Positions 13,027-37,061 of a stretch of 64,000 nucleotides of DNA are shown piece by piece. The stretch lies in assembly GCA_026014875.1 (NCBI GenBank), contig JAOZHO010000017.1, positions 11,611 through 75,610 on the forward strand, written 5' to 3'. Position 1 is the first letter of the stretch. Every line of letters starts with the position of its first letter. Made by a program: the position numbers and the translations under genes. Under the pieces are notes generated by a model. It was not told the origin of the DNA and did not search any database. It saw nothing but the letters and a program-made list of their open reading frames with translations. This DNA is from Candidatus Bathyarchaeota archaeon. Lineage in GTDB: Archaea > Thermoproteota > Bathyarchaeia > TCS64.

Positions 13027-13110
13027 AACGTTTCCCTTTATGGGTTAGTTTGTTAGTTCTTTGATCGGCTATTTGAAATAAATCTTGGGAAAGAGGTGAT
13101 TCGATATAAA

Positions 13111-14559
13111 ATGTCAAACGACCTGAAAGAGAGAGCAGTTGCATGGGTCGAGGAGAACAGCGAGCTCATCGTCGACGCCCACATGAAGTACTGGGAGTGG
13201 GCCGAGGTGGGGCTCCAGGAGATCAAGACCGGGATGCACATGGCCGACGTCCTCGAGGAGCACGGCTTCACCGTGGAGAGGGGCGTCGCCGGGATGCCCA
13301 GCGCCTTCGTCGCGACCTACGGCTCCGGGAAGCCCGTCATCGGGTTGATGGGGGAGCTCGACGCCCTCCCCAGCATATCCAACAAAGCCGTCCCCTACAG
13401 GGACCCCCTGGTCGAGGGGGGGCCGGGCCACGGATGCGGCCACAACAGCTACGCCGCGACGGCTCTGGGGGCGAGCCTCGCGTTGAAGGCGGTGATGGAG
13501 GAGGAGAACATCCCCGGCACCATCAAGTGCTTCGGCTGCCCCGCCGAGGAGACCCTGGTGGGGAAGGTCTTCATGGTCCGGGACGGCTTCTTCGACGGCC
13601 TCGACGCCTGCCTCGGCCACCACCCGGGGAGCATGAACACCTCGGGCCTCCGCAGCGGCAACGCGATGAACAGCGTCAAGTTCGAGTTCTTCGGCAAGGC
13701 GAGCCACGCCGCCGGGAGCCCCGAGCAGGGCATCAGCGCCATGGACGCGGTGGAGCTCATGAACGTCGGGGTCAACTACATGCGGGAGCACATCGTCCAG
13801 GAGGCCAGGGTCCACTACATCGTGGAGGAAGGTGGGGTCCAGCCCAACGTGGTGCCCCCCTACGCCCGGACATGGTACTACGTGAGGGCCCCCCGGCGGG
13901 ACCTCGTGGACAGGTACTACAAACGGCTCCTCAAGATGGCGGAGGGGGCCGACCTGATGGCGGAGACCACCCACAAGGTGGAGTTCCTCACGGGGGTCCA
14001 CAACGGGCTCCCCAACAGGCCCCTCGCGGAGCAGGTAGTCGCGAACATGAGGGAGATCGGAGCCCCCACCTACACCGACGAGGAGCTGGAGTTCGCCGCT
14101 AAGCTCGGCGAGAGTGTCCCCCGCGAGGAGAAGATGGACAGACTCCAAAAGCTCTCCAGATTCATCCCCGAGGCCATGGAGCTGGAACACATCAACCTTG
14201 ACAGCAACATCTACGATCCCTTCGGGGAGGAGATCAAGGGGGGCGGGGGCTCAAGCGACGTCGCCGACGTCGCCTGGAACTGCCCCACACAGCAGTTCAG
14301 CACCGCCTACTTCATCGTCGGGGCCCCGGGCCACAGCTGGCAGCACACCGCCGTCGGGGGGATGAGCATCGGCCACAAGGCCACGATCTTCGCGACGAAG
14401 GTGATGGCGGCCACTGTCGTCGATCTCCTCACCGGCCCGGAGCTCGTCAAGAAGGTGCGGGAGGACTGGGAGGAACGGATGAAGGGGCTCACATACAAGT
14501 CGCCGCTGCCCCCAGACCTGAAGCCACCCCTGGACCAGCTCGAGAAGCAACCCGAGTGA
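13111..14559 (+). CDS. M20D family amidohydrolase (AbgB/hippurate-hydrolase-like)
   Basis: GHGCGHNSYAA is a metal-binding motif. The gene shows M20 catalytic/dimerisation domain order and starts at ATG 13111 (MSNDLKER). Confidence 0.85.
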   Translation: MSNDLKERAVAWVEENSELIVDAHMKYWEWAEVGLQEIKTGMHMADVLEEHGFTVERGVAGMPSAFVATYGSGKPVIGLMGELDALPSISNKAVPYRDPLVEGGPGHGCGHNSYAATALGASLALKAVMEEENIPGTIKCFGCPAEETLVGKVFMVRDGFFDGLDACLGHHPGSMNTSGLRSGNAMNSVKFEFFGKASHAAGSPEQGISAMDAVELMNVGVNYMREHIVQEARVHYIVEEGGVQPNVVPPYARTWYYVRAPRRDLVDRYYKRLLKMAEGADLMAETTHKVEFLTGVHNGLPNRPLAEQVVANMREIGAPTYTDEELEFAAKLGESVPREEKMDRLQKLSRFIPEAMELEHINLDSNIYDPFGEEIKGGGGSSDVADVAWNCPTQQFSTAYFIVGAPGHSWQHTAVGGMSIGHKATIFATKVMAATVVDLLTGPELVKKVREDWEERMKGLTYKSPLPPDLKPPLDQLEKQPE

Positions 14560-14703
14560 TACCCTCACTCCCTTTTTTCTTTGAACTCGGTCAGCATGAG
14601 ATGTCAGAGTTTAGATTCGAGAAGACACAACTTGCGCCCGATTTGATTCGCCTGTTCTTGCAGACCGAAAAGGATATTTTTCCTCCTGTCTCTCCAACAG
14701 GGA

Positions 14704-15180
14704 ATGGTGAACGAAATGCCCGAGACCGTCATCGGCGTCTTGGAGAACGTCCAGACGAAGCCCCCGGGGAGCCTGACCGTGAAGAGCTGCGACCTGGTAT
14801 TCACCGACAGGAGGATGCTCTGCCTCAAGGTCGGGGGATCCAGCCTCGTCGCCGGCATGCTGGGATCGGCTGTTGGCGGAGCAGGCGGAGCCATAGCCTT
14901 CGGACGGGACAACCTCGCAGCCCAGGAGAGCTCGAGGAAGGCGATGGACGGCAGGGGCCTCGACGACATCCTCCGCACCGACGAGGAGAACTATGCGATC
15001 GAGCACTCCGTGGTGGAGAAGGGCTCCTTCAAGACGGGGTTCCTCTCATCCATGGGGTTGATGTCCCCCTTCACGATCCACGCGGGAGGCAGACGATATT
15101 TCTACAACGTCTACAACCGGAGCAAGGAGCAGGTCAAGGCGCTCATCCGAGCCACGATGCCCAACGTGAAGGTCTCCTAG
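14704..15180 (+). CDS. hypothetical protein (PH-like/YokE-like?)
   Basis: 158-aa ORF with a Gly-rich segment. No confident family. Confidence 0.4.
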   Translation: MVNEMPETVIGVLENVQTKPPGSLTVKSCDLVFTDRRMLCLKVGGSSLVAGMLGSAVGGAGGAIAFGRDNLAAQESSRKAMDGRGLDDILRTDEENYAIEHSVVEKGSFKTGFLSSMGLMSPFTIHAGGRRYFYNVYNRSKEQVKALIRATMPNVKVS

Positions 15181-15237
15181 GCTCCGCTCCCAAGTTCATC
15201 GATGAAAGAAAAAGGGATGCCGTAGGCTCTATGCTCT

Positions 15238-15567
15238 CTAGGGGAGCTTTGTTCCGCAGGACTTGCAGAATTTTTGTCCGGGTTCTGCCTCGACGCCGCA
15301 TCCGGGGCAGGTTCTGGCCGCCGGGGCCTCGCCAAGGTAGCCCTTGGATCTCCCCCTCCTGAATATATCCTCGACGAGGGCATCCGCCGAAGAGATGTCG
15401 AGCTCGTTCTCGTGGGGCGCACCGAAGGCGCTCATCGTCTCAGAGAGGATGCGCTGGCGCCCGGCGTCGGAGAGGGCTCCCTCCTCCACCAGGACGTCGA
15501 TGAGCATCGCGATCAGGTTCCGGTTCATGAACATGGCGTGGGGTATCGTGAGATTGGATTCTGCCAT
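15238..15567 (-). CDS. hypothetical protein with C-terminal zinc ribbon (CPGCG...CKSCG)
   Basis: 109 aa with a C-terminal CxxC-x10-CxxC. Confidence 0.45.
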   Translation of the reverse strand: MAESNLTIPHAMFMNRNLIAMLIDVLVEEGALSDAGRQRILSETMSAFGAPHENELDISSADALVEDIFRRGRSKGYLGEAPAARTCPGCGVEAEPGQKFCKSCGTKLP

Positions 15568-15678: not shown

Positions 15679-16044
15679 ATGCATACTTCTGAGAGGATGC
15701 TGAAGATATTCACGGCCGTTAGGAACGCTATGCGAAACGAAGAGAATTATGTCATCATTGAGAACCCGGGGAGCGAGAAGATCATCCAGTTCGCAGTGGA
15801 CCCCTCTTCGAGAGAGCTAGTAATGGACATCCCCATCCACGGTTTGACCCAGAACGAGTTCGACGGCCTCATCAACGAGCTGTCAGGGGTCGCCAGGGAC
15901 ACCGCGACTAACGAGGCGATCTCCTTCCAGGAGAGCTATTCATACGAAAGGATCAACGATGCGGTCGCCCAGACGGAGAAAATTTTCAGGGAGGTGTACA
16001 GCCTCCCCCCGAACTTCGATGTCACCATCCAGGTTTTCAGCTGA
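15679..16044 (+). CDS. hypothetical protein (YbjN-like?)
   Basis: 121-aa ORF with weak resemblance to YbjN-type putative sensory/chaperone-like domains. Confidence 0.35.
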   Translation: MHTSERMLKIFTAVRNAMRNEENYVIIENPGSEKIIQFAVDPSSRELVMDIPIHGLTQNEFDGLINELSGVARDTATNEAISFQESYSYERINDAVAQTEKIFREVYSLPPNFDVTIQVFS

Positions 16045-16065: not shown

Positions 16066-16743
16066 TTAGTCCCCGTGGCGTCTGCGGAGGGGCGGCGAGA
16101 GCCTGAGCATTATCAGGACCCGCTCGAAGATTTCCGCCCAATCGGAGAGCTCCTTCTCCCTAGCTTTGGGGCTCAGGATTCCTCCGTCGAACTCCCGTCC
16201 GATCTCCCTCGCGGCCTTGGCTCTGTAGACGCTGAGGGTGCGCTCCCCGAAACGGGCCATCTCCCAGAAGTCCTCGGAGAGGAAGACCAAGATGGGCACC
16301 CGGGTCGCCCCCACTATCCTGAGTTCTTCCATGAGCTCCGGGGAGGCATCCCGCTCGATGAATTTGATCTTCACTTTCTCTCCGCAGGCCTCGGCGAGCT
16401 TCTTCAGCAGGGGCCCCTGGCGGGCGCAGTCTCCGCACCAGATACCTGAGTAGACGAGGACGTTCAGCTCCCGGTCGTATCCCTGGAGGCGCTTCAGCTG
16501 CTCCTCGCTCAGTGCGGGGATCCTCTTCTCCGAGTCCCGCCATCTCTGGATGTGTTCCTGTTCGCTCCCCTCGATGTACGCCTCGTACTCGGAGGCCTTA
16601 TCGAAGTGGGCTCTCCAGAACTCGCTTCGTTTATCTTGATACCCCGGCGTATCACTCAAATTGACCACGCTCCAGTGATCTATCTCGCCCTCTTTATAAC
16701 CGTGCGTTTTAAGAGTGGGGGAGTTGGGTCCTCCCCTTCCCAC
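16066..16743 (-). CDS. thioredoxin-fold protein (TlpA/thioredoxin-like, WCGDC active site)
   Basis: SGIWCGDCARQGP is a CxxC redox motif in thioredoxin context. The protein has a long N-terminal extension. Confidence 0.75.
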   Translation of the reverse strand: MGRGGPNSPTLKTHGYKEGEIDHWSVVNLSDTPGYQDKRSEFWRAHFDKASEYEAYIEGSEQEHIQRWRDSEKRIPALSEEQLKRLQGYDRELNVLVYSGIWCGDCARQGPLLKKLAEACGEKVKIKFIERDASPELMEELRIVGATRVPILVFLSEDFWEMARFGERTLSVYRAKAAREIGREFDGGILSPKAREKELSDWAEIFERVLIMLRLSPPLRRRHGD

Positions 16744-17100: not shown

Positions 17101-18060
17101 TCAGATTCTGATCACGTAGATGAGGGTATCCCCCGAGTTGGCGACCGCCGAGGTCCGCGAGTTGTTCGCGACCCCGTCGAAGGGCGCCGTGACAGTCTGC
17201 AGTGTGTCCCCGAAGAGGTCCACGACCTCCCCGAGAACCTGGCCCTCCTTCACCCTCTCGCCGGCAGCCGCCTTCTGGATCCACAGGCCTCCCCGCTCGG
17301 CGTGGAACCTTGCCTGCTCGGGGTTCACCGGGACCCCGACCTTCATCTCGGGGTCCCCCTCCAGCATGCCCATGTGCTTCATGACGTTGACGATGCCGTC
17401 CCTGTGGAATGCGACCTCCTCCTCCCGGACAGGGTACGGGGTCCCCGACTCGGGGGTGATGCAGGGGATGCCGTACTCTCTGAGGGCCTCCCCGCTGCTC
17501 CCCTTGATCTCCGAGGTCTGGATGTAGAGTGTGTCGTAGCACGAGGCCATCTCCATCATCTTCTTCCTGAGCCCCTCGTCCTCGGTGTTCCCGAAGATCA
17601 CGAACTTGTAGATATCCTCGGTGAGGTCCCCGCCGTGGCTGTCGATGAGCGCATCGGCCTTGGAGACAAAGTTCTCGAAGAGGCAGCTCGCGACCCGCCT
17701 GCTCAGGCTCCCGTCGGGGCTCCCGGGGAAGACCCTGTTCTGGTTGACATAGTCCACCGGGTTGATGAAGGCGGCCCGGGCGTTGAACCCGTCGGTGTTC
17801 ACCACCGGGACCAGGATGAGGGTGCCCCTGAGCCCCTCCGGCTCCACCTCCTGGGCCACCCTGAGGACCCCCTCGATGCTCGCGTACTCTAGAGGATGAA
17901 CGCCGCCCAAGACGCAGAGGGTCGGCCCCGGCTCGGAGCCGTTCACGATGACGTAGGGCATCATGACGTCGTGGGTCGAGGCCTCCCCGGCCTTCACGAA
18001 TCCCTTCGCCTTCTCCCCCTGCCCGATCTCCCTATCTCCTACTTTGAAAGACAAAACCAA
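17101..18060 (-). CDS. succinylglutamate desuccinylase/aspartoacylase (AstE/AspA) family zinc hydrolase
   Basis: CVLGGVHPLEYASIEG ... DSHGGD are His/Glu zinc ligands and give the fold typical of the AstE_AspA family. Confidence 0.8.
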   Translation of the reverse strand: MVLSFKVGDREIGQGEKAKGFVKAGEASTHDVMMPYVIVNGSEPGPTLCVLGGVHPLEYASIEGVLRVAQEVEPEGLRGTLILVPVVNTDGFNARAAFINPVDYVNQNRVFPGSPDGSLSRRVASCLFENFVSKADALIDSHGGDLTEDIYKFVIFGNTEDEGLRKKMMEMASCYDTLYIQTSEIKGSSGEALREYGIPCITPESGTPYPVREEEVAFHRDGIVNVMKHMGMLEGDPEMKVGVPVNPEQARFHAERGGLWIQKAAAGERVKEGQVLGEVVDLFGDTLQTVTAPFDGVANNSRTSAVANSGDTLIYVIRI

Positions 18061-18149: not shown

Positions 18150-18938
18150 ATGAGCGTCAAGCTTCATCACAAGAGCTGGGTCACCATCAAGAAGCACCTA
18201 GAGTCCTCGGACACTGTGATCATACCCCTCGGCTCCATGGAGGCCCACGGGGAGCACAAACCCGTGGGATGCTGCTACCTCCTCGCCGAGGCGGCCTCGG
18301 AGGAGGTCTCCGAAAGGACCGGAGTTCCCCTCACCCCCGTTATCCCCTTCGGGATCTCCCCGCCCTACAAGCACTTCCCGGGCACAGTCACGGTGAGCTC
18401 CGAGACCCTCAACCGGTACGTCTACGAGGTCTCCGAGAGCCTCGCGCGCGCCGGCTTCAGGAAGATACTGTTTTTCAGCGCCCACGGCGGCAACAACCTC
18501 TCAGTCCTGAGGGAGGTCTCCTACAGGCTCCGGGAGGAGCACGGCGTCCTATGCGCCGTCATCCACGTCTGGGGCGTCATCTCGAAGATGATCCCCCCGG
18601 ATTTCTGGGGTCCCGGCCACCGCAGGGGCCACGGCGGGGAGCCCACCACCTCGGTGATGCTCCACCTGAAGCCAGACCTGGTTGACATGGCGAAGGCTCA
18701 GCTGAAGCCCCTGAAGGACATCGGGGAGGGCTTCGAAGCCAAGTCCTACGGGAACCACGAGTTCCAGGGGATAGTCCACAGCATCTTCCTCCACGCCGAG
18801 GAGGTGCAGCCCAGCGGGTTCATGGGGGACCCCACCAGGGCCACCCCTGAGAAGGGGAAATTCCTCTACGAGAAGGCAGTAGATCACCTCGTGGACCTCG
18901 TCGAGGCCTTCAGGAAAGTGGACCCCGATCAGGGCTAG
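18150..18938 (+). CDS. creatininase-family amidohydrolase (paralog 1)
   Basis: IIPLGSMEAHGEHKPVGCC ... FFSAHGGN ... GHGGE are metal-binding motifs of the creatininase/ArfB/MftE fold. Confidence 0.85.
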   Translation: MSVKLHHKSWVTIKKHLESSDTVIIPLGSMEAHGEHKPVGCCYLLAEAASEEVSERTGVPLTPVIPFGISPPYKHFPGTVTVSSETLNRYVYEVSESLARAGFRKILFFSAHGGNNLSVLREVSYRLREEHGVLCAVIHVWGVISKMIPPDFWGPGHRRGHGGEPTTSVMLHLKPDLVDMAKAQLKPLKDIGEGFEAKSYGNHEFQGIVHSIFLHAEEVQPSGFMGDPTRATPEKGKFLYEKAVDHLVDLVEAFRKVDPDQG

Positions 18939-19707
18939 CCTGCAGGGGTTATCTCCCAGTCTTTCCCATCCATCTCCCCGATGAAGTCAACCAGGAGGTC
19001 CACCAAGGCGTCCCGCATCAGCCGCCCCTTCTCGGGAGTCGCCTTCGTGGGATCACCGGTCACCGCATAGGGCGTTATCTCGTCGAACCTCCACTTCACC
19101 TGAACGTGGACCGGCAGATCCGGCACGACACCCCTCGCCCTCTCCATCTCCACGAGCTCCGGGGCAACCGCCAGCATCATGGAAGTCTCCCCCTCCCCGC
19201 CGTGGCCCAGCCCGTCCCAGACCTCGAAGGTCCCCTCGGGGAGGAGCTCCCCCGCGGTCACCCACCATGCTTCGAGGACGGCGATCCGCATCTCCGGGTG
19301 CTCGGTCCTGAACTCCCGGGTCGAGGCCTCGATGGCTGGAATGTTCCCGTCGTGGCCGTTGACGATGAGAAGCTTTTTGATCCCGTGGCTGAGGAGGGAT
19401 GCGAAGACCTCCCGGAGGACCCGCATCAGTGTCTCCGTGGTGAGGGTAAGCGCGATGGGGAACGAGGAGTAGTGGACGCTCATCCCGATGGGCAGAGCCG
19501 GGAGCACCAGGAGCCCCTCGACCCTCTCAGCGACAGCCTCAGCGAGATGGGACGCGATGAGGGTATCGGTGCCATGGGGGAGGTGCTCACCGTGGGACTC
19601 CGTTGATCCCACCGCCAGGACGGCCTTGTCGAAGCCCCCGGCCTCGAGTCCATGCCCCGTGAGCCGGAGCAGACGTTTCTCGCTCAAAATTTCACCGTAG
19701 AGCATTA
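18935..19707 (-). CDS. creatininase-family amidohydrolase (paralog 2)
   Basis: LAVGSTESHGEHLPHGTD ... IVNGHDGN ... GHGGEGE. Trimmed to ATG (MLYGEIL) at 19705-19707 because the longer 19978 frame is an extension. Confidence 0.8.
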
Positions 19708-19760: not shown

Positions 19761-20510
19761 ATGTCTGATGAGGGTTCCCCGAGGGGGAGCGTCTGGATCG
19801 AGAATCTCACTTGGGTGGAGGCCGAGAGGGTTCTGGAGGAGTATGAGGTGGTGATGATACCTCTGGGGGCCAGGACCAAGGAGCACGGCCCCCACCTCCC
19901 CCTGAACAACGACTGGGTCATGGCGGAGTACCTCGCCAAGCGGGTGGCTGCTGAGGTCCCCGTCGCGGTGATGCCCACGCTCCAGTACGGATACTACCCC
20001 TCGTTCCTCGAGTACCCGGGCTCAGTCTCCCTGGGCTTCGAGACCTTCAAGGATCTGGTGAAGGACGTCTGCGTCTCCCTGGCGGGCTACGGCGTCCGCA
20101 AATTCTACGTCCTCAACACAGGGGTCTCAACCGCGAGGGCCCTCGGGCCGGCATCCGAGGAGCTCAGGAAGCAGGGGATCGAGATGAGGTTCACCGACAT
20201 CCTGGCCTCCGGGGCCAGGGCCGAGGAGGGGGTCTCCGAGCAGGAGGGGGGCACCCACGCAGACGAGATGGAGACCTCCATGATGCTCTACATCGACCCC
20301 GAGATGGTGGACATGTCCAAGGCCGTGAAGGATTATGATCCATCGGGGGGCCTGGGGCTCACCCGGGACCCCGAGAAAATAGGCTCCAAGTACTCGCCCA
20401 CGGGGGTCTTCGGGGACCCGACGCTGGCCACTGTGGAGAAGGGGAGGGTCGCGGTGGAGGCGAGGGTCCGCTTCATCGTCGAGGAGCTGAGAGCCCTCAT
20501 CGATTCTTAG
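19761..20510 (+). CDS. creatininase-family amidohydrolase (paralog 3)
   Basis: MIPLGARTKEHGPHLPLNNDW ... VLNTG ... GTHADEME. Confidence 0.85.
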   Translation: MSDEGSPRGSVWIENLTWVEAERVLEEYEVVMIPLGARTKEHGPHLPLNNDWVMAEYLAKRVAAEVPVAVMPTLQYGYYPSFLEYPGSVSLGFETFKDLVKDVCVSLAGYGVRKFYVLNTGVSTARALGPASEELRKQGIEMRFTDILASGARAEEGVSEQEGGTHADEMETSMMLYIDPEMVDMSKAVKDYDPSGGLGLTRDPEKIGSKYSPTGVFGDPTLATVEKGRVAVEARVRFIVEELRALIDS

Positions 20511-22206: not shown

Positions 22207-22487
22207 TCTCTTTTTTTCTATAACCACGTATAGTGGTAGCCATGCGCCTCTGGTCCCTCCACTCCCGCTACCTAGACTTGAAAGGACTCGGCGGTCATCA
22301 CCGCGATCTGGTATTTCAGGAGAGGCGGGTCGGATCAAGTCCGGAGGGGCCCCGTCACTCTCGTCTACGTCCCCGTCGGTGACGGCTTCCGCATCGCCCA
22401 CGCCAACTTTGCATGCTACTGAATCTGCAGGACTCGCAGACGCGCCTGATGGCCGTGCAGTAAACTTATCACATATGATCCTGAACA

Positions 22488-30126: not shown

Positions 30127-30253
30127 GGGGATGACCTAGTTCCCTTTTTTTGAGCAGTATTCAGATCACCCACTCGCTTGAAAAAGAGAAAAAAACATCA
30201 GAAAACTCGATTCGACTATAAACTCCTGGCCGCCTCTCGGCGTCTGAGCTTAT

Positions 30254-30433
30254 CTAGAACCTTCTTGGCGGCCTGTGCTTAGCAAAGCACTCACGGCAGT
30301 AAACCGGCCTGCCCTCTGTCGGCTTGAAGGGGACCTCGGCCTCCTTCCCGCAATCAGAGCAGATGATCTTGGTCATCTCACGCGGGCCACGGTCGTATCC
30401 ACCGCGCCTATCTCTATAACCCAATACTTTCAC
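30254..30433 (-). CDS. small CxxC-x17-CxxC zinc-ribbon protein, copy A (59 aa, GTG start; core MTKIICSDCGKEAEVPFKPTEGRPVYCRECFAKHRPPRRF)
   Basis: Hand translation of the minus strand. Paralog of 30752..30934 and not in the ORF track because it is 59 aa. Confidence 0.6.
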   Translation of the reverse strand: MKVLGYRDRRGGYDRGPREMTKIICSDCGKEAEVPFKPTEGRPVYCRECFAKHRPPRRF

Positions 30434-30751
30434 TCCTATTCTGTGTGTATGCTCAGAACGCCTCTCGGTATTCGCCGCACACTGGGCACGCAGGGGTATT
30501 TCTCCCTTTTAAACCATTTTACGCAAAGCCAACCATAAACAACCTAAACCAGAGTCGTGCGCGATGAGGGCGGTTTTATTCAGTCTGAAGAGCTTCGTCG
30601 GATATGCGAAATGGTTGAGAAAGTCTCAGTGACCAGATTACCTGTTTCGGGTCATCCTTCAGAACCCTCACTAGCTTGGAAAAAAAGAAAAAACAATAGA
30701 AAACTCGATTCGACTATAAACTCCTGGCCGCCTCTCGGCGTCTGAGCTTAT

Positions 30752-30934
30752 CTAGAACCTTCTTGGCGGCCTGTGCTTAGCAAAGCACTCACGGCAGTAA
30801 ACCGGCCGGCCCTCTGTCGGCTTGAAGGGAACCTCGTCCTCCTTCCCGCAATCAGAGCACGTGATCTTTGTCATCTCACGCGGGCCGCGGTCGTATCCAC
30901 CGCGCCTGTTGTCTCTATAACCCAATACTTTCAC
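30752..30934 (-). CDS. small CxxC-x17-CxxC zinc-ribbon protein, copy B (60 aa)
   Basis: MKVLGYRDNRRGGYDRGPREMTKITCSDCGKEDEVPFKPTEGRPVYCRECFAKHRPPRRF. Differences from copy A are mostly synonymous, plus one in-frame 3-nt indel. Confidence 0.65.
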   Translation of the reverse strand: MKVLGYRDNRRGGYDRGPREMTKITCSDCGKEDEVPFKPTEGRPVYCRECFAKHRPPRRF

Positions 30935-31100
30935 TCCTATTCTGTGTGTATGCTCAGAACGCCTCGCGGTATTCTCCGCACACTGGGCACGCAGGCGCGG
31001 TTCTCCCTTTTAAACCCTTTTACGCCGACCCAACTATAAACAGGCAAATCCAAAAGAACCTCCTAGAATAAATAACTGGAGAGGACCCGGGGGATATACG

Positions 31101-31766
31101 ATGGAAACAGTCATACTGATACGCCACGGGGAGGCGGAGCACATGGTGAGCGACCTGACAGGGGGCTGGTCCCAGACCCCCCTCACCGAGAAAGGCAGGG
31201 CCCAGGTGCGCGCCCTGGCGACGAGGCTCGAGAAGGATCTCGAGGGGGTCGATTATGCTTTCTACTGCAGCGACTTAAAGAGGGCACACCAGACCGCCGA
31301 TATCATCGCCGAGGCGGTGGGGCGTGAGCCGATCCCCTCCCGGGAGCTCAGGGAGTTCAACAACGGCGTCGCCGCCGGCAGGGCCAAGGAGGAGGTCGCC
31401 CACCTGTACCGCCCCCCATCGGAGTCAATAATGGACTGGCAGCCCTACCCCGAGGCGGAGACGTGGCGGAGGTTCTACCGCAGGATCACGGCGTTCATGG
31501 ACGAGGTCCATGCTGAGGAGGATCGTCCCACCCTCATAGTCTCCCACGGGGGCACCATCGTCAACCTCGTCGCCTGGTGGATCAGGCTCGAGGAGGCCGG
31601 CCTCTCATACACCACGTTCCATACGTCCCCTGCGAGCCTCAGCGTCCTCAATGTCACCCCCCTCAACGAGAGGGCCGTGGAGAGGCTCAACGACACCGCG
31701 CACCTGCATAAACTGGGGCAGGTTCCCCGCCTCCCTCTAGAGGCGAAACCTCAGAGCGCTCCTTGA
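31101..31766 (+). CDS. histidine phosphatase family protein (phosphoglycerate-mutase-like)
   Basis: ILIRHGEAEH is the RHG catalytic motif, with a later His in SHGGTI. Confidence 0.8.
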   Translation: METVILIRHGEAEHMVSDLTGGWSQTPLTEKGRAQVRALATRLEKDLEGVDYAFYCSDLKRAHQTADIIAEAVGREPIPSRELREFNNGVAAGRAKEEVAHLYRPPSESIMDWQPYPEAETWRRFYRRITAFMDEVHAEEDRPTLIVSHGGTIVNLVAWWIRLEEAGLSYTTFHTSPASLSVLNVTPLNERAVERLNDTAHLHKLGQVPRLPLEAKPQSAP

Positions 31767-31800: not shown

Positions 31801-32685
31801 TCAACGGGTCGTGTCGAGGCTGACGCTGCCGACCCCCAACCTGATGTCAAGTCTCAGGCTGGGCTCCTGGGATTTCTCGTAGGCGTCGTTGGTGTAGACC
31901 CCTCCCAAGGGGAAACCCTTGCTCCGGGTTCGGAGGAAGCCCCCGTGGGCGCTCACGCTGGCGAGCCCCTCTACCGAGACCCTGGTGGGCACGGTCTCGT
32001 CCACGGTGATCCTGAAGCTCCCGACCCCTCCCCCGATGTCCACCCTTGCGTCGCGGTCGAGGCTCTTCCCGGTGAAGCCGAGCCTCATCTCCCCGACCCC
32101 GCCCTCCACCTTCATCCTGTCGAAGTTGGCGTTGAGGAGGCCGCTGGCGTCGAGGTCCCCGGCCCCCGCGGAGAGCTTTAGAAGCCTGAGGGCTTCGGGG
32201 TTGGGGGAATCGAAGCTCAGGGAGTTGTTGCTCACCCCCGCCTGGAGTGTGAGGTCCGTGAGGGGGAGGCCCCCGAGGTCCCAGTCCCCCATGCTCACTC
32301 CGCAATTTACGTCCATGGAGAAGGGCTTCCCGTCCCCCAGCTTGATGTCCCAGCGGTTCACGGGGTTCGACCTGACTCGGACAACGAACCTCTACTCCTG
32401 GACGATCCTCACCCTGTCCCCCTGGACACGGACCACCGGGGCGAGCTCGGAGTCGTCATACTCCACCGTCCCCTCCACGAACCTTCCGGATGCGCCCCCG
32501 GAGACGTTGATCCGCCCCGCGGAGCGGACCACGATCTCGAGCCTCGCCGAGTCCCCCTCCGGGTAGGGGATGTCCAGGGTCTCCACCTTGATCGCCTGGA
32601 GGGTCTCTCCCACGGGCGTGCCGCACGCTGAGCAGAATAAGTCTTCGACTCCCAGCTCTTTCCCACATTTGATGCAAAAGGGCAT
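31801..32685 (-). pseudogene. zinc-ribbon plus DUF4097-like (beta-strand repeat, putative adhesin/LiaG-like) protein interrupted by a single in-frame TAG at 32392-32394
   Basis: ORFs 32392..32685 and 31801..32361 are in the same frame, separated only by TAG plus 10 sense codons. Combined length (about 293 aa) and domain order (N-terminal CxxC..CxxC ribbon, then repeated ...V.V.GG.G...V strands) match a single DUF4097-type protein. Confidence 0.5.
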
Positions 32686-32803: not shown

Positions 32804-34294
32804 ATGAGGATAGCGGTGGCTAGCTTCTCCCACGAGACCTGCACCCTCTGCCCCAGGCCGACGACGGTCGAGGATTTCGAGCGGGGCGGGGTTTACTACG
32901 GGGAGGAGGTTCTGGATCGGGTCAGGGGCAGCCCCACGTACATGAATGGGTTCATCAAGGCGGCCGAGGTAGAGTCCGACGTGGAGCTCGTAGGGGTTCT
33001 CAGCGCGGCGAAGAGCTGGGGCGGCTCATCGGGGAGCTGGCTGACCCGGGAGTGCTTCGACAAGTATTCCCTGGGCATCGAGGAGGGGCTCAAGAAGGCG
33101 GGGAAGCTGGACGGGGTCCTCCTGGCGCTCCACGGGGGCATGGCGGCGACGGGGGTCCCGAGGCCCGAGGCAGAGATCGTCCGGAGAGCCCGCAGGGCTG
33201 TGGGGGGCATCCCCATCTTCGTGACATTCGACATGCACGGCAACGAGGACCAGGAGATCGTGGATGCCGTGGATGGCGTCTTCAGCATCAAGACCTTCCC
33301 CCACATCGACTCGGAGGAGACGGGAGTGGCTGCGGCTAAGTGCCTCTTCGAGACTGTCCGGGGGAGTTTCAAGCCTACCATGGCTCTGAGGAAGCCGGGG
33401 GTCATCTCCCCGGGTGTCTTCCAGCACACGGGCTCCCACCCCATGAAGGACATCATCGCTAGGGCGAAGGAGTGGGAGGAGAAGGAGCCCGACGCCCGAT
33501 GGGTCTCCTCGATGCCCGGGTTCCCCTACGCGGACGTCCCCGACGCGGGGTTCACCGTGATAGCCCTCACCAACGGCGACCAGGAGCTCGCGGAGCGCAT
33601 CGCCGACGACATGGCGGACCTCGTCTGGAGCCTCCGGGTCCCCCTCGCGAGCAGGAAGCTACCCAAGCCCAAGGAGGGGGTAGAGAAGGTCCTGAAGCTC
33701 GTCGCAGGGGGGAAGACCCCTGTCATCATCGCGGATCACAGCGACCGCACGGGGGACGGTACCCATGTCCTGGAGCAGCTCCTCAAGCAGGGGGCGAAGA
33801 ACTTCGGCATCTCAACCATCAAGGACCCCAAGGCGGTCCTAGAGATCATGGATCAGGCCGAGGTGGGGGACACCGTGACGGTGAAGGTCGGGGGATACGA
33901 GCACCTCTCCGGGAACCCGGTGGAGCTCACCGGGCGGGTCGAGTTCCTCGGGGACGGAGACTACATCAAGGCGGGGCCCATGAGCAAGGGCAGCAAGACC
34001 CTCCTGGGGCCCACCGCCGTCCTTGACCTAGGGGACAACAACCACGTGGTGATAAGCTCAACCCTCCACCAGGTCACCGACTCTGCGGGCTTCACCGCCT
34101 TCGGCATCGACTTCGACAGCCTGGAGATCATGTCCCTCAAGTCTAGGGTTCACTTCAGGGCCTTCTACGAGAGCGTCGCGGGGTCTATCGTGGAGATCGA
34201 CTCCCCGGGGCTCGGGATAGCGGACCTCACCACCATCGACTACAAGAACGTCCCCAAGGACATCTATCCCTTCGTCGAGGAGCGACCCGGCTGA
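32804..34294 (+). CDS. M81 family metallopeptidase (MlrC/microcystinase C-like, DUF1485+DUF1446)
   Basis: MRIAVASFSHETCTL... N-terminus and overall 496-aa architecture are typical of MlrC-like proteins. Confidence 0.75.
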   Translation: MRIAVASFSHETCTLCPRPTTVEDFERGGVYYGEEVLDRVRGSPTYMNGFIKAAEVESDVELVGVLSAAKSWGGSSGSWLTRECFDKYSLGIEEGLKKAGKLDGVLLALHGGMAATGVPRPEAEIVRRARRAVGGIPIFVTFDMHGNEDQEIVDAVDGVFSIKTFPHIDSEETGVAAAKCLFETVRGSFKPTMALRKPGVISPGVFQHTGSHPMKDIIARAKEWEEKEPDARWVSSMPGFPYADVPDAGFTVIALTNGDQELAERIADDMADLVWSLRVPLASRKLPKPKEGVEKVLKLVAGGKTPVIIADHSDRTGDGTHVLEQLLKQGAKNFGISTIKDPKAVLEIMDQAEVGDTVTVKVGGYEHLSGNPVELTGRVEFLGDGDYIKAGPMSKGSKTLLGPTAVLDLGDNNHVVISSTLHQVTDSAGFTAFGIDFDSLEIMSLKSRVHFRAFYESVAGSIVEIDSPGLGIADLTTIDYKNVPKDIYPFVEERPG

Positions 34295-34345: not shown

Positions 34346-35692
34346 ATGACGCTGTGGGATTCCATCCAGAGAGAGATCGACGAGGCTAACCGGAGAGCCA
34401 TCGAGATCATCAAGCCCAGCGAGCAGGAGACGGAGAGGGGCCTCCGAGTCCACGGGGAGGCCATCGTCTTCGACTTCGGCCCCCCGGGGGGCCCCCTCAT
34501 CTACTCCGATAGGCTCACCGCGAAGATCAACCAGCTCTACGACGAGGGGCGCCTCAGGCAGACCTACGCCCGCTCCAGGGGACCCGCTGACAGGATATCC
34601 AGGTACTACCCCCCCGAGAAGCACCTCAGGTTCGACGGCCTCCCGGGGCGCCTCAGATACGAGGCGGTGAAGGAGCACGCATACGACCCCGAGGCGAAGG
34701 AGGCCTACAAGCGGGCGTGGGGGATCGCGGGGGTCACCGTGATGAGCACCGGGGGAGGGGGTTCGAGTCTGGAGGGCTACGACTTCCACAAGTACAAGAT
34801 GGAGACCCTCAGGGACGTGCTGGTCCCCGCGACATGCGCCGAGGACGTGAGGCGGGCGAAGGCGGAGGGGAGACACGGCATCATCTGGAACACTCAGGAT
34901 CCGAAGCCCTTCTTCAAGAGCGGCGATCTGGACCAGGACCTGGACCGCCTCGACATGTTCCACCGTCTCGGGCTCAGGGAGGTCCAGCTCACATACAACC
35001 TCAACAACCTGGTGGGGGCCGGCTGCACCGAGAGGTACGACTTCGGCCTCACCCGCTTCGGGTTGAAGGTGCTGGAGAGGCTCAACGATCTCCGGATCCT
35101 AGTCAACGTCAGCCACTGCGGGCGTCAGACCACCCTCGACGCCTGCGAGGCCTCGGAGGCTCCCGTGGTCGCGAATCACGCGAGCTGCGAGGAGGTCTAC
35201 GCCCATCCCAGGGCGAAATCCGACGAGGAGATCCACGCCGTCGCCGAGTCCGGGGGCTACTTGGGCATCTGCAGGGTCCCCCACTTCATAGGGTGGAACG
35301 CCACCATCAAGGACCTCTTGGACCACATCGATTACGCCGTCGAACTCGTCGGAGCCGACCACGTGGGGATAGGAACGGACCAGGGCTGGGCTGCTCCCAT
35401 CCCCCGGGGGATCCACGAAGAGTACGCGAAGATCGAAGCCGAGTACATCCCGGCCTCCCGGATGCCCCCGGACGCCCCCATGCCCACGAGGGACAACTAC
35501 GCGGGGTGGTGGTCGGGGTTCAGGCCGGAGCATTTCCCCTACGCCACGGACGAGCGCAACTTCGGCTCCCTCAGCTGGATCAACTGGCCCTACTACACCG
35601 TGGGCCTAGTCTCCCGGGGCTACTCGGACCAGGAGATAACCAAGATCCTCGGGGGGAACTTCCTCAGGGTCTTCGAGAAAGTGGTGGGCTGA
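34346..35692 (+). CDS. membrane dipeptidase, M19 family (second paralog)
   Basis: LREVQLTYNLNN...LVNVSHCG...H ligands fit the Peptidase_M19 layout. Confidence 0.8.
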   Translation: MTLWDSIQREIDEANRRAIEIIKPSEQETERGLRVHGEAIVFDFGPPGGPLIYSDRLTAKINQLYDEGRLRQTYARSRGPADRISRYYPPEKHLRFDGLPGRLRYEAVKEHAYDPEAKEAYKRAWGIAGVTVMSTGGGGSSLEGYDFHKYKMETLRDVLVPATCAEDVRRAKAEGRHGIIWNTQDPKPFFKSGDLDQDLDRLDMFHRLGLREVQLTYNLNNLVGAGCTERYDFGLTRFGLKVLERLNDLRILVNVSHCGRQTTLDACEASEAPVVANHASCEEVYAHPRAKSDEEIHAVAESGGYLGICRVPHFIGWNATIKDLLDHIDYAVELVGADHVGIGTDQGWAAPIPRGIHEEYAKIEAEYIPASRMPPDAPMPTRDNYAGWWSGFRPEHFPYATDERNFGSLSWINWPYYTVGLVSRGYSDQEITKILGGNFLRVFEKVVG

Positions 35693-35782
35693 GCTAGGCC
35701 GCAGTAACAGGGTGTTCGCACCCTTCTTCGCCCCGCTCCGGAGCGGGACTCCCTTCGAGGAGAACGAGTATTTATTTAACCC

Positions 35783-36694
35783 ATGAGTGTTGATTATCGG
35801 ATGCAATCCATGAAGGTTCTAGTCTTATACGGTAAATCCCAGAGCGCCAACGGCGTCGAGCTCAAAGAGACCGCCGTCAGGCTGGGGCACGAGGTCACCT
35901 CCGGGAGCATCATGGATGTCTCCTCGGAGATCTCCAACGAGGCCTCCCGGTTCTGGCTCGGCCGCAACGAGATCACCGACGTGGACGTCTGCTTCGTCCG
36001 GAGCTTCGGCCCCGGGACCTGCGAGCAACTCACCCGGCGCATCAGCCTGATCGAGCATATGGAGCTCTCGGGGATCAGGGTGGTGAACCCCACATACAGC
36101 TTCAGGAGGGCCCGGGACAAGTACTCGACCCAGTACGCCCTCGCCGGGGCGGGGTTACCCATCGCGACCACATACACCACGGAGAGCATGGAGAGAGCCT
36201 ACCGGAGGAGCCGGGAGATGGGGGTCTCCGTCTACAAGCCCATCCTCAGCAGCATGGGAAAGGGCAGCCTCAAGTTCGACGACCCGGAGATCGCCTACAA
36301 CGCCTGGAAGATGCTGAGCAGGGTGGGGATGCCCCTCATCGTCCAAGAGTACCTCGAGAACCCCGGGAGAGACCTAAGGGTCTTCGTGGTGGGAGACGAG
36401 GTTGTGGCCACGGCCTACAAATACGGGGGGCCTGGAGAGTGGAAAACCAACGTGGCCCAGGGAGGAAAGATGGTGGAAGAGCCCGTACCAGAGGACATCC
36501 TCGACCTCGGGATCAGAGCCGCCAAAGCCCTAGGGCTAGACTACTCCGGCGTCGACATCATGGAGACACCGCGAGGCCCAGTGGTCCTGGAAGCGAACGG
36601 CGCCCCGGGATGGCAGGCCCTCAAGGCCGTGACGGGGGTCGACATCGCAGAGAAGATCGTACTGCACGCCACGGAAGGGACCCGAGTTGGCTGA
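35783..36694 (+). CDS. RimK-family ATP-grasp ligase (alpha-L-glutamate ligase / MptN/CofF-like)
   Basis: ATP-grasp motifs (VYKPILSSMGKGS, LIVQEYLE, RVFVVGDEVVATAYK, VLEANGAPGW) in a 303-aa RimK-like architecture. Confidence 0.8.
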   Translation: MSVDYRMQSMKVLVLYGKSQSANGVELKETAVRLGHEVTSGSIMDVSSEISNEASRFWLGRNEITDVDVCFVRSFGPGTCEQLTRRISLIEHMELSGIRVVNPTYSFRRARDKYSTQYALAGAGLPIATTYTTESMERAYRRSREMGVSVYKPILSSMGKGSLKFDDPEIAYNAWKMLSRVGMPLIVQEYLENPGRDLRVFVVGDEVVATAYKYGGPGEWKTNVAQGGKMVEEPVPEDILDLGIRAAKALGLDYSGVDIMETPRGPVVLEANGAPGWQALKAVTGVDIAEKIVLHATEGTRVG

Positions 36695-37061
36695 AAGCGT
36701 CTCGAGGACCCCTGTGAAGATCGTCGTTGAGGGTGTGGGAGAGGCAAAAGGGGAGCTCGTGAGGATCCTCGCCCCCCTCACAGTCGGGACGATCCTCGGC
36801 AAGCTCCCCCTGAAAGGGAGGGCCCACGTCAGGGGCGGGGGGCTCTCGATGATCCTAGGGATCCGGCGGGGAGCGGAGAAGGCGGTGAACTCGGTGAAGG
36901 CCGGGGACATCGCGTACTGGCCGATGCAGGACTCCCTAGTCATCTATTTCCAGGACTCGAAGCCCTATGGTCCCGTCAACAAGGTGGGGACTGTCTCCGA
37001 GAACCTCGAACTCTTCCAGAGTCTCAAAGGCGGAGCCAGGATAAGAATCGAGAAAATATAG
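36687..37061 (+). CDS. hypothetical protein, cyclophilin-like fold candidate (DUF3830-like)
   Basis: 124-aa ORF overlapping the rimK-like stop by 8 nt, so co-transcription is likely. Confidence 0.4.
   Translation: MAESVSRTPVKIVVEGVGEAKGELVRILAPLTVGTILGKLPLKGRAHVRGGGLSMILGIRRGAEKAVNSVKAGDIAYWPMQDSLVIYFQDSKPYGPVNKVGTVSENLELFQSLKGGARIRIEKI

Follow-up and report, generated by a model that had tools for sequence, protein, structure and literature searches.

Creatininase is a hexamer, and the P. putida enzyme (CrnA, 1J2T/1Q3K) belongs to family PF02633. The same superfamily includes the archaeal ArfB and the bacterial BrbF (PMC9478397), two characterised cytoplasmic formamidases that cleave a small amide as AFRPP deformylases, and MftE, the peptidyl-dipeptidase of mycofactocin. 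Ectoine is handled by DoeA/DoeB through ring opening and then deacylation, and the gamma-glutamyl cycle pairs a gamma-glutamyltransferase (GGT) with the M19 enzyme DPEP1. The animal glutathione-conjugate pathway draws on GGT, the M19 dipeptidase DPEP1, the AspA-family aminoacylase 3 and the M20 aminoacylase ACY1. Gene sets for peptide fermentation were reportedly described in Bathyarchaeota by Lloyd et al. in 2013. These archaea are regarded as peptide fermenters whose peptidases are mostly intracellular (PMC9534799; PMC9123169).

Here we analyse a 64,000-nucleotide stretch (the window) of a Bathyarchaeota genome, to which BS750m-G27, a MAG from the Black Sea, is closest. Within it, a 24-kb interval holds three creatininase-fold genes, crn1, crn2 and crn3, side by side on alternating strands (+,-,+), just as an earlier note on this DNA had described, among many other amide-bond hydrolases (Table 1).

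Table 1. Features of the interval and of its surroundings, with profile matches
Feature	Position	Strand	Profile evidence and remarks
M20D-type amidohydrolase, 487 aa	13096-14559	+	TIGR01891 236 bits (cut-off 154); PF01546, PF07687
Thioredoxin_9 protein	16066-16743	-	PF14595 E = 1.6e-21
AstE/AspA-family zinc deacylase	17101-18060	-	PF24827 69 bits
crn1	18150-18938	+	PF02633 E = 7.6e-59
crn2	18935-19705	-	PF02633 E = 8.4e-64; ATG at 19705
crn3	19761-20510	+	PF02633 E = 3.6e-56
M42 (TET-type) aminopeptidase	20520-21605	-	PF05343 304 bits
Rubrerythrin	21712-22206	+	PF02915, PF21349; divergent from M42
Reductive-dehalogenase homologue, cytoplasmic type	22488-23681	+	TIGR02486 205 bits (cut-off 160)
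Nitroreductase-family protein	23700-24335	-	PF00881 E = 1.2e-30
Gamma-glutamyltransferase (GGT)	24223-26007	+	TIGR00066 376 bits (cut-off 358)
M19-family amidohydrolase a	25997-27160	+	PF01244 196 bits
SnoaL-like protein	27240-27659	+	PF12680
MFS transporter	27946-29181	+	PF07690 150 bits; candidate importer
MBL-fold hydrolase	29230-30126	+	PF00753; no equivalog model reached
M81 (MlrC-like) metallopeptidase	32804-34294	+	PF07364 248 bits, PF07171 132 bits
M19-family amidohydrolase b, 2I5G-like	34346-35692	+	PF01244 217 bits
RimK-family alpha-L-glutamate ligase (ATP-grasp)	35783-36694	+	TIGR00768 181.5 bits (cut-off 143)
Cyclophilin-like protein	36687-37061	+	PF04126; overlaps RimK end
M28+PA	41586-43361		nearby, outside island
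Asp/Glu racemase	43358-44104		nearby, outside island
Aminotransferase	49759-50922		nearby, outside island

The three creatininase-fold genes

CrnA is among the nearest solved structures to all three proteins (E = 1e-17 to 1e-22), but identity to it is only ~28-33%, the creatininase model TIGR04448 stays at 104-113 bits, short of its cut-off of 235, and the substrate-binding residues Y121, E122, W174 and E177 of CrnA are not conserved. None of the three reached the NCBIfam cut-offs for creatininase, MftE, ArfB or IolN. The trio had been called tandem paralogs; the genes are indeed adjacent and divergent (pairwise identity 29-34%), but the duplication implied by that term does not hold. Out of 200 bootstraps, 94.5% recover each paralog's clade as monophyletic; no two clades are sisters, and identity between clades (29-31%) equals that to P. 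putida creatininase. This phylogeny argues for three old subfamilies brought together and not for duplication.

Ligand patterns are invariant, or nearly so, inside each clade. Like CrnA, crn2 has all six canonical ligands (E34, H36, D45, H120, H178, E183), which are retained across 119 orthologues, whereas crn1 and crn3 each lack two. In crn1, the bridging Asp45 is replaced by Cys and Glu183 is gone; 56/56 orthologues have Cys45 and 54/56 lack Glu183, and among the best 150 representatives of 1.84 billion proteins this is the sole Cys45 clade. Glu34 and His120 are missing from crn3, which has the motifs TKEHG and NTG, and all 117 of its orthologues carry Lys34 and Gly120. The clades also differ in reach: that of crn1 is a small Bathyarchaeia clade, that of crn2 is widespread in Bathyarchaeia and anaerobic bacteria (1508 matches in the homologue search, 401 relatives in the genome scan), and that of crn3 is large (5731 matches). 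Since these are old subfamilies with different metal sites, three different substrates are expected, and the paralogs should be non-redundant.

The ligand losses are complementary, with crn1 keeping what we take to be the M1-type ligands, crn3 the M2-type and crn2 both. Given that the three genes adjoin in one lineage and that fused double-creatininase proteins exist (P0361, P0389, P0484), a hetero-oligomer of complementary half metal sites might be imagined. However, each subfamily is solitary in many genomes, and we regard such an assembly as far-fetched.

Two known functions of the superfamily bear directly on the trio. At least one paralog, most plausibly crn2 or crn3, could be a housekeeping formamidase, an ArfB/BrbF analogue for riboflavin or F420 that lies here by accident; both characterised AFRPP deformylases belong to this family, and crn2 and crn3 have very wide distributions and often sit in housekeeping contexts. 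Yet the ArfB model gives only 31.7 bits for crn2 (cut-off 180) and no match for crn1 or crn3, so that the clustering with ArfB that the earlier note had named beforehand as counter-evidence was not found, and the likeness to BrbF is by description only. Riboflavin genes are absent among the recurrent crn2 neighbours in 80 loci, and bacterial crn2 orthologues (50-57% identity) close Liv-type ABC-transporter operons at their 3' end, in many cases together with asparaginase genes, an importer context that points to catabolism. We consider the formamidase explanation improbable. Maturation of a mycofactocin-type RiPP or cofactor, in which an MftE-like homologue trims a modified peptide, is effectively refuted. 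The MftE model does give comparable scores for all three paralogs (99-109 bits), but these lie under its cut-off of 172, and a radical-SAM enzyme, an MftB-like chaperone and a precursor-peptide gene are absent from the window and syntenic loci, leaving the crn locus without mftA, mftB or mftC.

Gene content of the interval

The region is ordinary Bathyarchaeia chromosome: homologues carry names from that group, and the window also carries TBP, S25e, SMC/ScpAB, UppS and tRNA-Ser, shows no integrase or other mobile-element marks, and has a level GC content throughout the 24-kb interval. Pfam and NCBIfam profile searches recovered every amide/peptide-hydrolase family named in the earlier note. 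All the genes it listed exist, but their order needed correction, as the nitroreductase precedes GGT, the MFS gene precedes the MBL gene and the second M19 gene follows M81; the second creatininase had been given 19707 as its upper coordinate, whereas its ATG lies at 19705. Its list also passed over intervening non-hydrolase genes: Thioredoxin_9, rubrerythrin, the reductive-dehalogenase homologue, SnoaL, a histidine phosphatase, a zinc-ribbon protein, a pair of small zinc-finger genes and the cyclophilin-like gene.

Amide-bond hydrolases make up ~10 of the roughly 27 genes, and six genes fall in MEROPS families (M20, M42, T03, M19 twice, M81). Bathyarchaeota MAGs hold on average 29 peptidases (range 11-57; PMC9534799), which, at the 1.1-2.3 Mb of the chromosomes in our genome scan, corresponds to ~0.35-1.2 per 24 kb. 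Against this expectation, six give a Poisson probability of ~2e-6 to 2e-3, uncorrected for window choice, so the clustering is improbable as chance; cross-species conservation, described below, is the stronger argument.

No hydrolase of the interval, GGT included, has a signal peptide or an N-terminal hydrophobic segment, and on this basis the ten are predicted to be cytoplasmic. The genes form separate transcription units on alternating strands with redox genes between them. The AstE gene diverges from crn1 across an 89-bp spacer and crn2 from crn3 across 55 bp, and no 8-mer common to the divergent spacers was found. The true starts of the nitroreductase and GGT are probably ~24224 and 24316, respectively; nitroreductase orthologues in the relatives L086 and L098 have 173 aa. 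The M20D protein is of the N-acyl-amino-acid hydrolase/carboxypeptidase subtype. The reductive-dehalogenase homologue shows no N-terminal hydrophobic or Tat-like segment; it and the Thioredoxin_9 gene probably lie outside the hydrolytic function.

The two genes previously called M19 dipeptidases do belong to M19, but the second half of that name is doubtful. The nearest structure to protein a is the uncharacterised 2I5G (E = 1.7e-45), and VIDAS stands in place of its N-terminal His-x-Asp; protein b, 35% identical to a, likewise lacks these canonical ligands. The GGT-DPEP1 pairing has a parallel here: GGT overlaps an M19-family gene by 11 bp, and the pair is kept across many Bathyarchaeia (L032, L037, L040, L046, L049, L050, L086). 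In contrast to that system, both proteins are cytoplasmic by prediction and the M19-like one lacks DPEP1's His-x-Asp, which weakens the logic of a GGT plus a dipeptidase. The same loss counts against mercapturate-like processing of thiol conjugates or xenobiotics, an idea invited by the co-occurrence of GGT, M19-like, AstE/AspA-type and M20 genes within 17-27 kb, with a reductive-dehalogenase homologue and nitroreductase alongside (L086 and L098 both retain RDH-NTR-GGT-M19). Moreover, we see no sign that these archaea produce glutathione conjugates or are exposed to them, and distant species have M19-GGT-M42-crn2 with neither dehalogenase nor nitroreductase. We judge this idea very improbable.

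Conservation in related genomes

Gene order is genuinely conserved, but module by module. AstE-crn1-(DUF3830)-crn2-crn3-M42-rubrerythrin is retained in relatives at 75-94% identity, and this core without the DUF3830 gene is syntenic in six of them. It is joined by M20D in L006 (94%) and in L001/2, L087 and L088 (84-86%); the M20D orthologues near the trio in L001, L006, L087 and L088 are 91-94% identical, and all four loci keep Thioredoxin_9 between M20D and AstE. L086 (~75%) retains AstE through MFS, equivalent to 17.1-29.2 kb of the window, with a SnoaL-like gene likewise between M19 and MFS. Rubrerythrin adjoins M42 in L001, L006, L008, L086-L088 and L098, and the reductive-dehalogenase homologue is retained in L008, L086, L087 (two copies) and L098. 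L086 and L091 also have the MFS gene, in L003-L005 homologues with 37-46% identity to it are found upstream of crn1 orthologues, and MFS genes adjoin creatininase genes at several Bathyarchaeia loci. Outside the core, the flanking genes vary from one relative to another, so the core survives rearrangement around it.

Smaller units reach further. AstE adjoins crn1 orthologues in L001/2, L003, L006, L086, L087 and L099, and the pair reappears at 61-68% identity, where it has an Amidohydro_1 neighbour and occurs in two orientations. M42 is the commonest crn2 neighbour in Bathyarchaeia (18 crn2 loci have an adjacent M42 and 11 an adjacent GGT), and M19-GGT-M42-crn2 are adjacent in ~10 more distant GTDB species with crn2 identity of 65-70%; the lineage of the window itself has further genes inserted among these four. 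crn3 adjoins crn2 in close relatives only (L001/2, L006, L086-L088) and at ~70% identity occurs in unrelated gene contexts.

The far end of the interval behaves differently, and the 24-kb island of the earlier note is not a single unit. The M81-M19b-RimK-cyclophilin-like block is retained in near-identical assemblies only, the MBL gene solely in one of these (L091), and an 81% M81 orthologue (L090) has another gene context; the block is a younger, lineage-specific module. Its M81 protein scores 95 bits with the MlrC model (cut-off 999), and its RimK-family ligase reaches none of the MptN, LysX or RimK equivalog cut-offs. The cyclophilin-like gene was considered as an orthologue of the relatives' crn2-adjacent DUF3830 and rejected, as a tblastn search with the DUF3830 protein of L086 gives no match in the window.

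Could the juxtaposition be chance, with peptidase-rich Bathyarchaeia showing synteny through shared descent only and no functional coupling? The separate, alternating transcription units, the unrelated redox and housekeeping genes, the divergent spacers without a common promoter motif and the unconserved M81-RimK block would all fit this, as would crn2 and crn3 orthologues at ~70% identity, which are often solitary in unrelated contexts. Synteny at 75-94% identity could also be partly inheritance without selection. However, M19-GGT-M42-crn2 adjacency at only 65-70% identity, AstE-crn1 in two orientations at 61-68%, a core that stays while its flanks change, and six MEROPS-family genes in 24 kb, far over the genome average, all speak for coupling. 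With no ArfB-like paralog and with neighbours that are syntenic rather than scattered in relatives, we conclude that the juxtaposition is not coincidental, and pure chance is an unlikely, if serious, alternative.

A putative salvage locus

We propose, with a probability of roughly one half, that several small modules of cytoplasmic amide-bond hydrolases, each transcribed on its own, have gathered here and putatively serve to salvage or catabolise small peptides and amides. The modules are AstE-type deacylase with crn1, crn2 with M42, GGT with M19-like, crn3, and M20D, alongside the younger M81 block. MFS transporters would admit small peptides and amide compounds; GGT would remove gamma-glutamyl groups, M20D and AstE N-acyl groups and M42 N-terminal residues, while the creatininase-fold enzymes may cleave cyclic or formyl amides. 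Products freed from blocking or unusual linkages could then pass to transaminases. As to substrates, none of our results favours in particular the non-ribosomal, cyclic or D-residue peptides suggested in the earlier note. Catabolism or salvage, as originally suggested, is the most economical account of the kept juxtaposition, although the separate units and interspersed redox genes sit less easily with it: rubrerythrin, the reductive-dehalogenase homologue, the nitroreductase and the thioredoxin-like gene of the conserved block misfit a purely hydrolytic pathway.

For AstE-crn1, a two-step scheme is most likely by analogy with ectoine DoeA/DoeB: crn1 would open a ring or cleave an amide, and AstE would deacylate the resulting N-acyl amino acid. 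The top NCBIfam model for AstE is DoeB (105 bits, under the cut-off of 403), its top PDB matches are 3NA6 and 6TWM (N-acetyl-DABA deacetylase), and its partner has a fold known for opening cyclic amides. The likeness is one of analogy only, as DoeA is M24-type rather than creatininase-fold and no other ectoine genes are present.

We found no literature mention of creatininase together with Bathyarchaeota, so the cluster of three subfamilies, with its conserved modules, is apparently undescribed. The peptide-fermentation sets known from the same taxon share with it families of intracellular metallopeptidases such as M42, as well as aminotransferases and transporters (PMC9534799). Our best reading is of a multi-promoter, cytoplasmic locus of known enzyme families for putative peptide and amide salvage; as its core is retained in related species, it probably provides these archaea with a toolkit for imported small peptides and amides.

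Creatininase-fold paralogs and their metal-ligand sets

PF02633 matched all three adjacent genes crn1, crn2 and crn3 end to end at E = 1e-56 to 1e-64 (199.5, 215.7 and 190.7 bits, respectively; cut-off 31.3), and these matches already fix the predicted fold as that of creatininase. The nearest solved structures are that of the P. putida creatininase and two from structural genomics (E = 1e-17 to 1e-22). Every score against a more specific model fell below its cut-off, and we therefore reject the identities of true creatininase (TIGR04448, the creatinine amidohydrolase equivalog; 108, 113 and 104 bits for crn1-3, cut-off 235), MftE (TIGR03964; 99-109 bits, cut-off 172), IolN (NF041098, 3-dehydro-scyllo-inosose hydrolase; 72-87 bits, cut-off 245) and ArfB (NF033501, cut-off 180). 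The ArfB model reached crn2 at 31.7 bits and had no match to crn1 or crn3 at E <= 1e-3; a housekeeping formamidase among the three is quite improbable. An MftE-like role is more doubtful still, with no radical-SAM or precursor gene (mftA/B/C-type context) near the crn genes in the window or the syntenic loci. To our knowledge, only about five activities have been characterised in the superfamily (CrnA, ArfB, BrbF, MftE and IolN). BrbF is the formamidase SMc02977 of S. meliloti (PMC9478397).

The earlier note had described the three genes as divergent paralogs, and a tree bears this out. We aligned the three proteins with 352 database matches and the P. putida creatininase, and built a neighbour-joining tree on a 66-sequence subsample. 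Each paralog fell in a clade of its own, monophyletic in 94.5% of 200 bootstraps, a lower bound because a few replicates were NaN from capped distances. A sister relation between any two of the three clades appeared in <2% of replicates. Identity between the clades is 29-31%, equal to their 28-33% identity to the Pseudomonas enzyme. Recent tandem duplication is rejected on these separate clades and on the 29-34% pairwise identity of the paralogs themselves. Thus, three old subfamilies have been brought together.

The clades also differ at the metal site. We take the binuclear metal-site residues to be E34, H36, D45, H120 and E183, with H178 catalytic, in P. putida numbering (Beuth 2003; Yoshimoto 2004). 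All six are kept in the crn2 clade (119 orthologues). The crn1 clade (56 orthologues) has Cys at position 45 in 56/56 and lacks Glu183 in 54/56; the window's crn1 itself carries C45 and T183 at these columns. Lys34 and Gly120 are found in 117/117 orthologues of crn3. When crn1 was searched against 1.84 billion representatives of 50%-identity clusters, 7023 family members were matched at E <= 1e-3. In the best 150 of these 7023, Cys45 is limited to the crn1 clade; many of the 150 have lost H36 or E183. Three proteins (P0361, P0389 and P0484; 521-533 aa) are tandem fusions of two creatininase domains.

Gene content and layout

The gene map of the 13.1-37.1 kb interval was built with Pfam and NCBIfam scans, and G+C of ~85-90% at third codon positions served as the mark of genuine genes where ORFs overlapped. 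Every family that the earlier note had named in this interval was confirmed, but its gene order was partly wrong, its crn2 coordinate was 2 nt off, and it had left out the non-hydrolase genes. About 10 of the ~27 genes are amide-bond hydrolases by family.

Genes of the 13.1-37.1 kb interval and the nearby racemase-peptidase pair
Gene	Position	Strand	Model
M20D amidohydrolase	13096-14559	+	TIGR01891
No named family	14704-15180	+	
Zinc-ribbon protein	15238-15567	-	
No named family	15679-16044	+	
Thioredoxin_9 protein	16066-16743	-	
AstE/AspA deacylase	17101-18060	-	PF24827
crn1	18150-18938	+	PF02633
crn2	18935-19705	-	PF02633
crn3	19761-20510	+	PF02633
M42 aminopeptidase	20520-21605	-	PF05343
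Rubrerythrin	21712-22206	+	
Reductive-dehalogenase homologue	22488-23681	+	TIGR02486
Nitroreductase	23700-24335	-	
Gamma-glutamyltransferase (GGT)	24223-26007	+	TIGR00066
M19-like a	25997-27160	+	PF01244
SnoaL	27240-27659	+	
MFS transporter	27946-29181	+	
MBL hydrolase	29230-30126	+	
Two small zinc-finger genes	30254-30433, 30752-30934	-	PF23477
Histidine phosphatase	31101-31766	+	
Zinc-ribbon/toast-rack-like gene(s)	31801-32685	-	
M81	32804-34294	+	
M19-like b	34346-35692	+	PF01244
RimK-family ligase	35783-36694	+	TIGR00768
Cyclophilin-like protein	36687-37061	+	
M28+PA-domain peptidase	41586-43361	-	
Asp/Glu/hydantoin-racemase family	43358-44104	-	

Orientation alternates through the center of the interval: AstE and crn1 are divergent (89-bp spacer), crn1 and crn2 convergent with a 4-bp overlap (18935-18938), crn2 and crn3 divergent (55-bp spacer), crn3 and M42 convergent (9 bp apart), and M42 and rubrerythrin divergent (106-bp spacer). 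Two pairs have the look of operons: GGT and M19-like a, which overlap by 11 bp, and the RimK-family and cyclophilin-like genes, which also overlap. We looked for a common regulatory motif in the upstream sequences, the four divergent spacers among them, and no 8-mer occurred in three or more regions.

Several family assignments could be sharpened. The M20D gene scored 236.1 bits against TIGR01891 (cut-off 153.75), M42 matched PF05343 at 303.8 bits with all specific equivalogs below cut-off, and GGT passed TIGR00066 (375.6 bits; cut-off 357.85). The AstE/AspA gene scored 69 bits against PF24827 (cut-off 25) and 104.8 against the DoeB equivalog TIGR02994 (cut-off 402.7); its nearest characterised relatives are N-acetyl-diaminobutyrate deacetylases. 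The M81 gene belongs to the general family only, at 95 bits against 999 for the microcystinase MlrC model NF041767. The RimK-family gene passed the alpha-L-glutamate ligase model TIGR00768 (181.5 bits; cut-off 143.4) and none of the MptN, LysX, RimK or CofF equivalogs. M19-like a and b, 35% identical, matched PF01244 at 196 and 217 bits. In renal-type M19 dipeptidases the N-terminal His-x-Asp motif supplies zinc ligands (H20/D22 of human DPEP1). Both proteins lack the motif, reading VIDAS (a) and VFDFG (b), and neither is a renal-type M19 dipeptidase, despite the Pfam match. They fall in a subgroup like the uncharacterised amidohydrolase 2I5G, the nearest structure to both, which reads VIDGL at the same position.

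The dehalogenase homologue lies above the TIGR02486 cut-off (205 versus 160 bits). The protein lacks a Tat or signal segment, and no membrane-anchor gene adjoins its own; the gene is kept in relatives and is present in two copies in one of them (locus L087, 2910-5335). It appears to be a cytoplasmic, non-respiratory type in a Bathyarchaeia genome.

A tandem duplication of a ~500-bp unit spans 30060-31052 (copies 30060-30551 and 30566-31052, ~83-90% identical), each copy with one minus-strand gene for a 59-60-aa treble-clef zinc finger (PF23477). Since the first copy starts inside the MBL 3' end, the duplicated unit took in ~67 nt from the end of the MBL gene. A plus-strand ORF at 31919-32566 was discarded as a wrong-frame antisense artefact, the genuine genes there being on the minus strand. 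These are a zinc-ribbon/toast-rack-N ORF (32392-32685) and a 186-aa ORF (31801-32361), 30 bp apart, which may be a single gene broken by a stop or frameshift.

Otherwise the window is ordinary chromosome, with TBP, ribosomal protein S25e, SMC/ScpA/ScpB, UppS, inositol-phosphate synthase and one tRNA-Ser (45998-46083, the sole tRNA). It also holds further amino-acid and peptide genes: an FAD-dependent (DAO-family) oxidoreductase, two MFS transporters, an Ldh_2-family dehydrogenase, an aminotransferase, an M24 peptidase and the racemase-M28 pair. The pair overlaps by 4 bp at the peptidase start and is probably an operon joining racemisation to aminopeptidase activity; both proteins lack a signal peptide. 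A mobile or genomic island is rejected. Pfam scans of the window found no integrase, transposase or other mobile-element gene, no tRNA flanks the interval, and its G+C is even (0.58-0.66). Plasmid origin is likewise rejected, since 17.0-27.2 kb had no megablast match in PLSDB. The best homologues of crn1, crn2 and crn3 all come from Bathyarchaeota/Bathyarchaeia MAGs. Elsewhere, G+C dips from the window mean of ~0.6 to 0.42 (1-2000), 0.52 (44001-46000) and 0.50 (52001-54000). ORFs 99-1070 and 52291-53397 in these low-G+C stretches have no Pfam match, and a class I methyltransferase lies at 1239-2051, in the first of them.

Conservation of the neighborhood in relatives

We scanned GTDB species genomes anchored on a crn2 alignment (401 relatives, 80 loci kept) and compared each locus fetched with the full set of window proteins. 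Among species-representative genomes, the Black Sea MAG BS750m-G27 (JADHWM010000024; crn2 94% identical) is the closest. The order M20D...Thioredoxin_9...AstE-crn1-crn2-crn3-M42-rubrerythrin is kept in loci L006 (94% identity), L001/L002 (84%), L087 (85%) and L088 (86%). These close relatives vary in the presence of a UbiD gene, an extra MFS gene, and Amidohydro_1 with a permease, and L088 has lost AstE. At ~75% identity, locus L086 (GCA_050053595.1) has a counterpart of the whole window 17.1-29.2 kb, in the order AstE-crn1-DUF3830-crn2-crn3-M42-rubrerythrin, four small genes, then dehalogenase homologue-nitroreductase-GGT-M19-SnoaL-MFS; its flank past AstE is unrelated to the window's. The M81-M19b-RimK-cyclophilin-like block is not conserved in this way: a metagenome scan found the block only in a near-identical assembly (L091, L095; 89-98% identity), and an 81% M81 orthologue has BKACE, HpcH-type aldolase and CoA-transferase genes as neighbors instead.

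More distant relatives retain smaller units. Ten other species, from soil, peat, permafrost and aquifer samples, have a crn2 only 65-70% identical. M19-GGT-M42-crn2 are directly adjacent in 6 of the 10; the other four have GGT-M42-crn2 or GGT-crn2, with contigs ending there. Neither crn1 nor crn3 lies near crn2 in any of these ten species' loci; that the proteins form a hetero-oligomer is very improbable. M42 is the commonest crn2 neighbor in Bathyarchaeia (18 loci). Orthologues of crn1 at 61-68% identity adjoin AstE, in either orientation, with Amidohydro_1 next door (L003, L099), and more distant ones do not keep this arrangement. Orthologues of crn3 at ~70% identity sit in unrelated contexts, and one at 76% lies near M42-rubrerythrin-dehalogenase-nitroreductase-GGT.

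From this pattern we conclude that the 24-kb hydrolase-dense interval is a composite. It consists of an old M19-GGT / M42-crn2 nucleus and an AstE-crn1 pair, with crn3 and some redox genes as later, lineage-specific parts and a young right-hand block. That neighboring genes were inherited together without functional coupling is rather unlikely. The earlier note had suggested a pathway for catabolism or salvage, and this is supported in part: the grouping is not random and its role is most likely catabolic, but it is made up of modules and is not one single pathway.

The comparison brought out some smaller differences. A 138-aa gene for DUF3830 (cyclophilin-like fold) directly follows crn2 on the same strand in most relatives (L006 4252-4656, L086 10765-11181, L087 10823-11239, L001 10796-11212, L007 4515-4925) and is absent beside crn2 in the window and L088, where the ends of crn1 and crn2 overlap by 4 bp. 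The window's cyclophilin-like gene was considered as a relocated copy and rejected, as no similarity was found. Between rubrerythrin and the dehalogenase homologue, 22242-22307 is a relic of a pyrimidine-dimer glycosylase gene (Pyr_excise), reduced to its first 22 codons (68% identity to the protein of L087); the gene is intact at that site in L001, L086, L087, L088 and L098. Three contigs filed under Patescibacteria (L007, DATLAV010000090), Krumholzibacteriaceae (L011, DATKWN010000002) and Desulfaltia (L035, DATKWY010000342) MAGs carry a crn2 74-82% identical to that of Bathyarchaeia with Bathyarchaeia-like neighbors, and are probably mis-binned.

Predicted function and significance

The hydrolases of the 13.1-37.1 kb cluster all lack an N-terminal hydrophobic segment and are therefore predicted to be cytoplasmic. 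This agrees with the report that peptidases of Bathyarchaeota are mainly intracellular (PMC9534799). Creatininase genes in Bathyarchaeia are repeatedly adjoined by MFS transporters, and other Bathyarchaeial crn2 neighbors include an acetamidase/formamidase, a saccharopine-dehydrogenase-like protein and DUF3830. Bacterial crn2 orthologues (50-57% identity; among loci L057-L085, for example Moorella thermoacetica L059, Desulfovibrio sp. L063, Caldatribacterium L085, and also Desulfobacter) take the 3'-terminal position in Liv-type ABC-importer operons (Peripla_BP_6, BPD_transp_2 and two ATPases), often with an asparaginase or isoaspartyl-peptidase-type gene before or after. This bacterial locus looks like a conserved, uncharacterised import-and-hydrolysis operon. 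Cytoplasmic hydrolases with transporter and amidase neighbors point to the handling of imported small nitrogen compounds rather than to cofactor or RiPP biosynthesis. For the non-ribosomal, cyclic or D-residue peptides proposed earlier as substrates we found no specific evidence. Although GGT passes its cut-off, the 2I5G-like character of both M19-family proteins, without His-x-Asp, calls for caution on any gamma-glutamyl logic, and a thiol-conjugate pathway has very little probability.

For crn1, the analogy with ectoine DoeA/DoeB suggests a two-step scheme, because AstE kin deacetylate and crn1 shares its fold with enzymes known to open cyclic amides: crn1 would open a ring or cleave an amide, and AstE would then deacylate the product. 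We give a probability of roughly one in five to a fuller reading, in which the crn1 clade would be a new kind of creatininase-fold enzyme, with Cys replacing the metal-bridging Asp and a Cys/His/Glu site that would bind a single metal, perhaps Fe or Zn. Together with the conserved AstE-type partner, and Amidohydro_1 in some species, it would form an undescribed two- or three-step route that opens and deacylates a cyclic amide or N-acyl compound (for example osmolyte-like or detrital) in sediment Bathyarchaeia, while crn2 and crn3 would act on two further amide substrates.

All the families are known, the locus is no new type of system, and no long-standing question depends on it. Our literature search found no paper joining creatininase and Bathyarchaeota. 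What appears undescribed is the conjunction of three creatininase subfamilies, with fixed but differing ligand sets and conserved modules around them, and a Cys45 clade that appears confined to Bathyarchaeia among the best 150 of the 7023 family members.

Bathyarchaeia are among the most abundant archaea of anoxic sediments and are thought partly to use detrital protein. For the intracellular steps of this metabolism we know only of family-level annotation. The conserved modules supply candidate enzyme pairs (AstE-crn1, M42-crn2 and GGT-M19-like), within a superfamily that counts 7023 50%-identity clusters at E <= 1e-3 and of which one locus displays three subfamilies with distinct ligand sets. 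Of these, crn2 belongs to a wide clade common to Bathyarchaeia and anaerobic bacteria, linked in the latter to Liv-type importers. If substrates were found, they would bring annotation to thousands of "creatininase family" proteins and better models of organic-nitrogen recycling.
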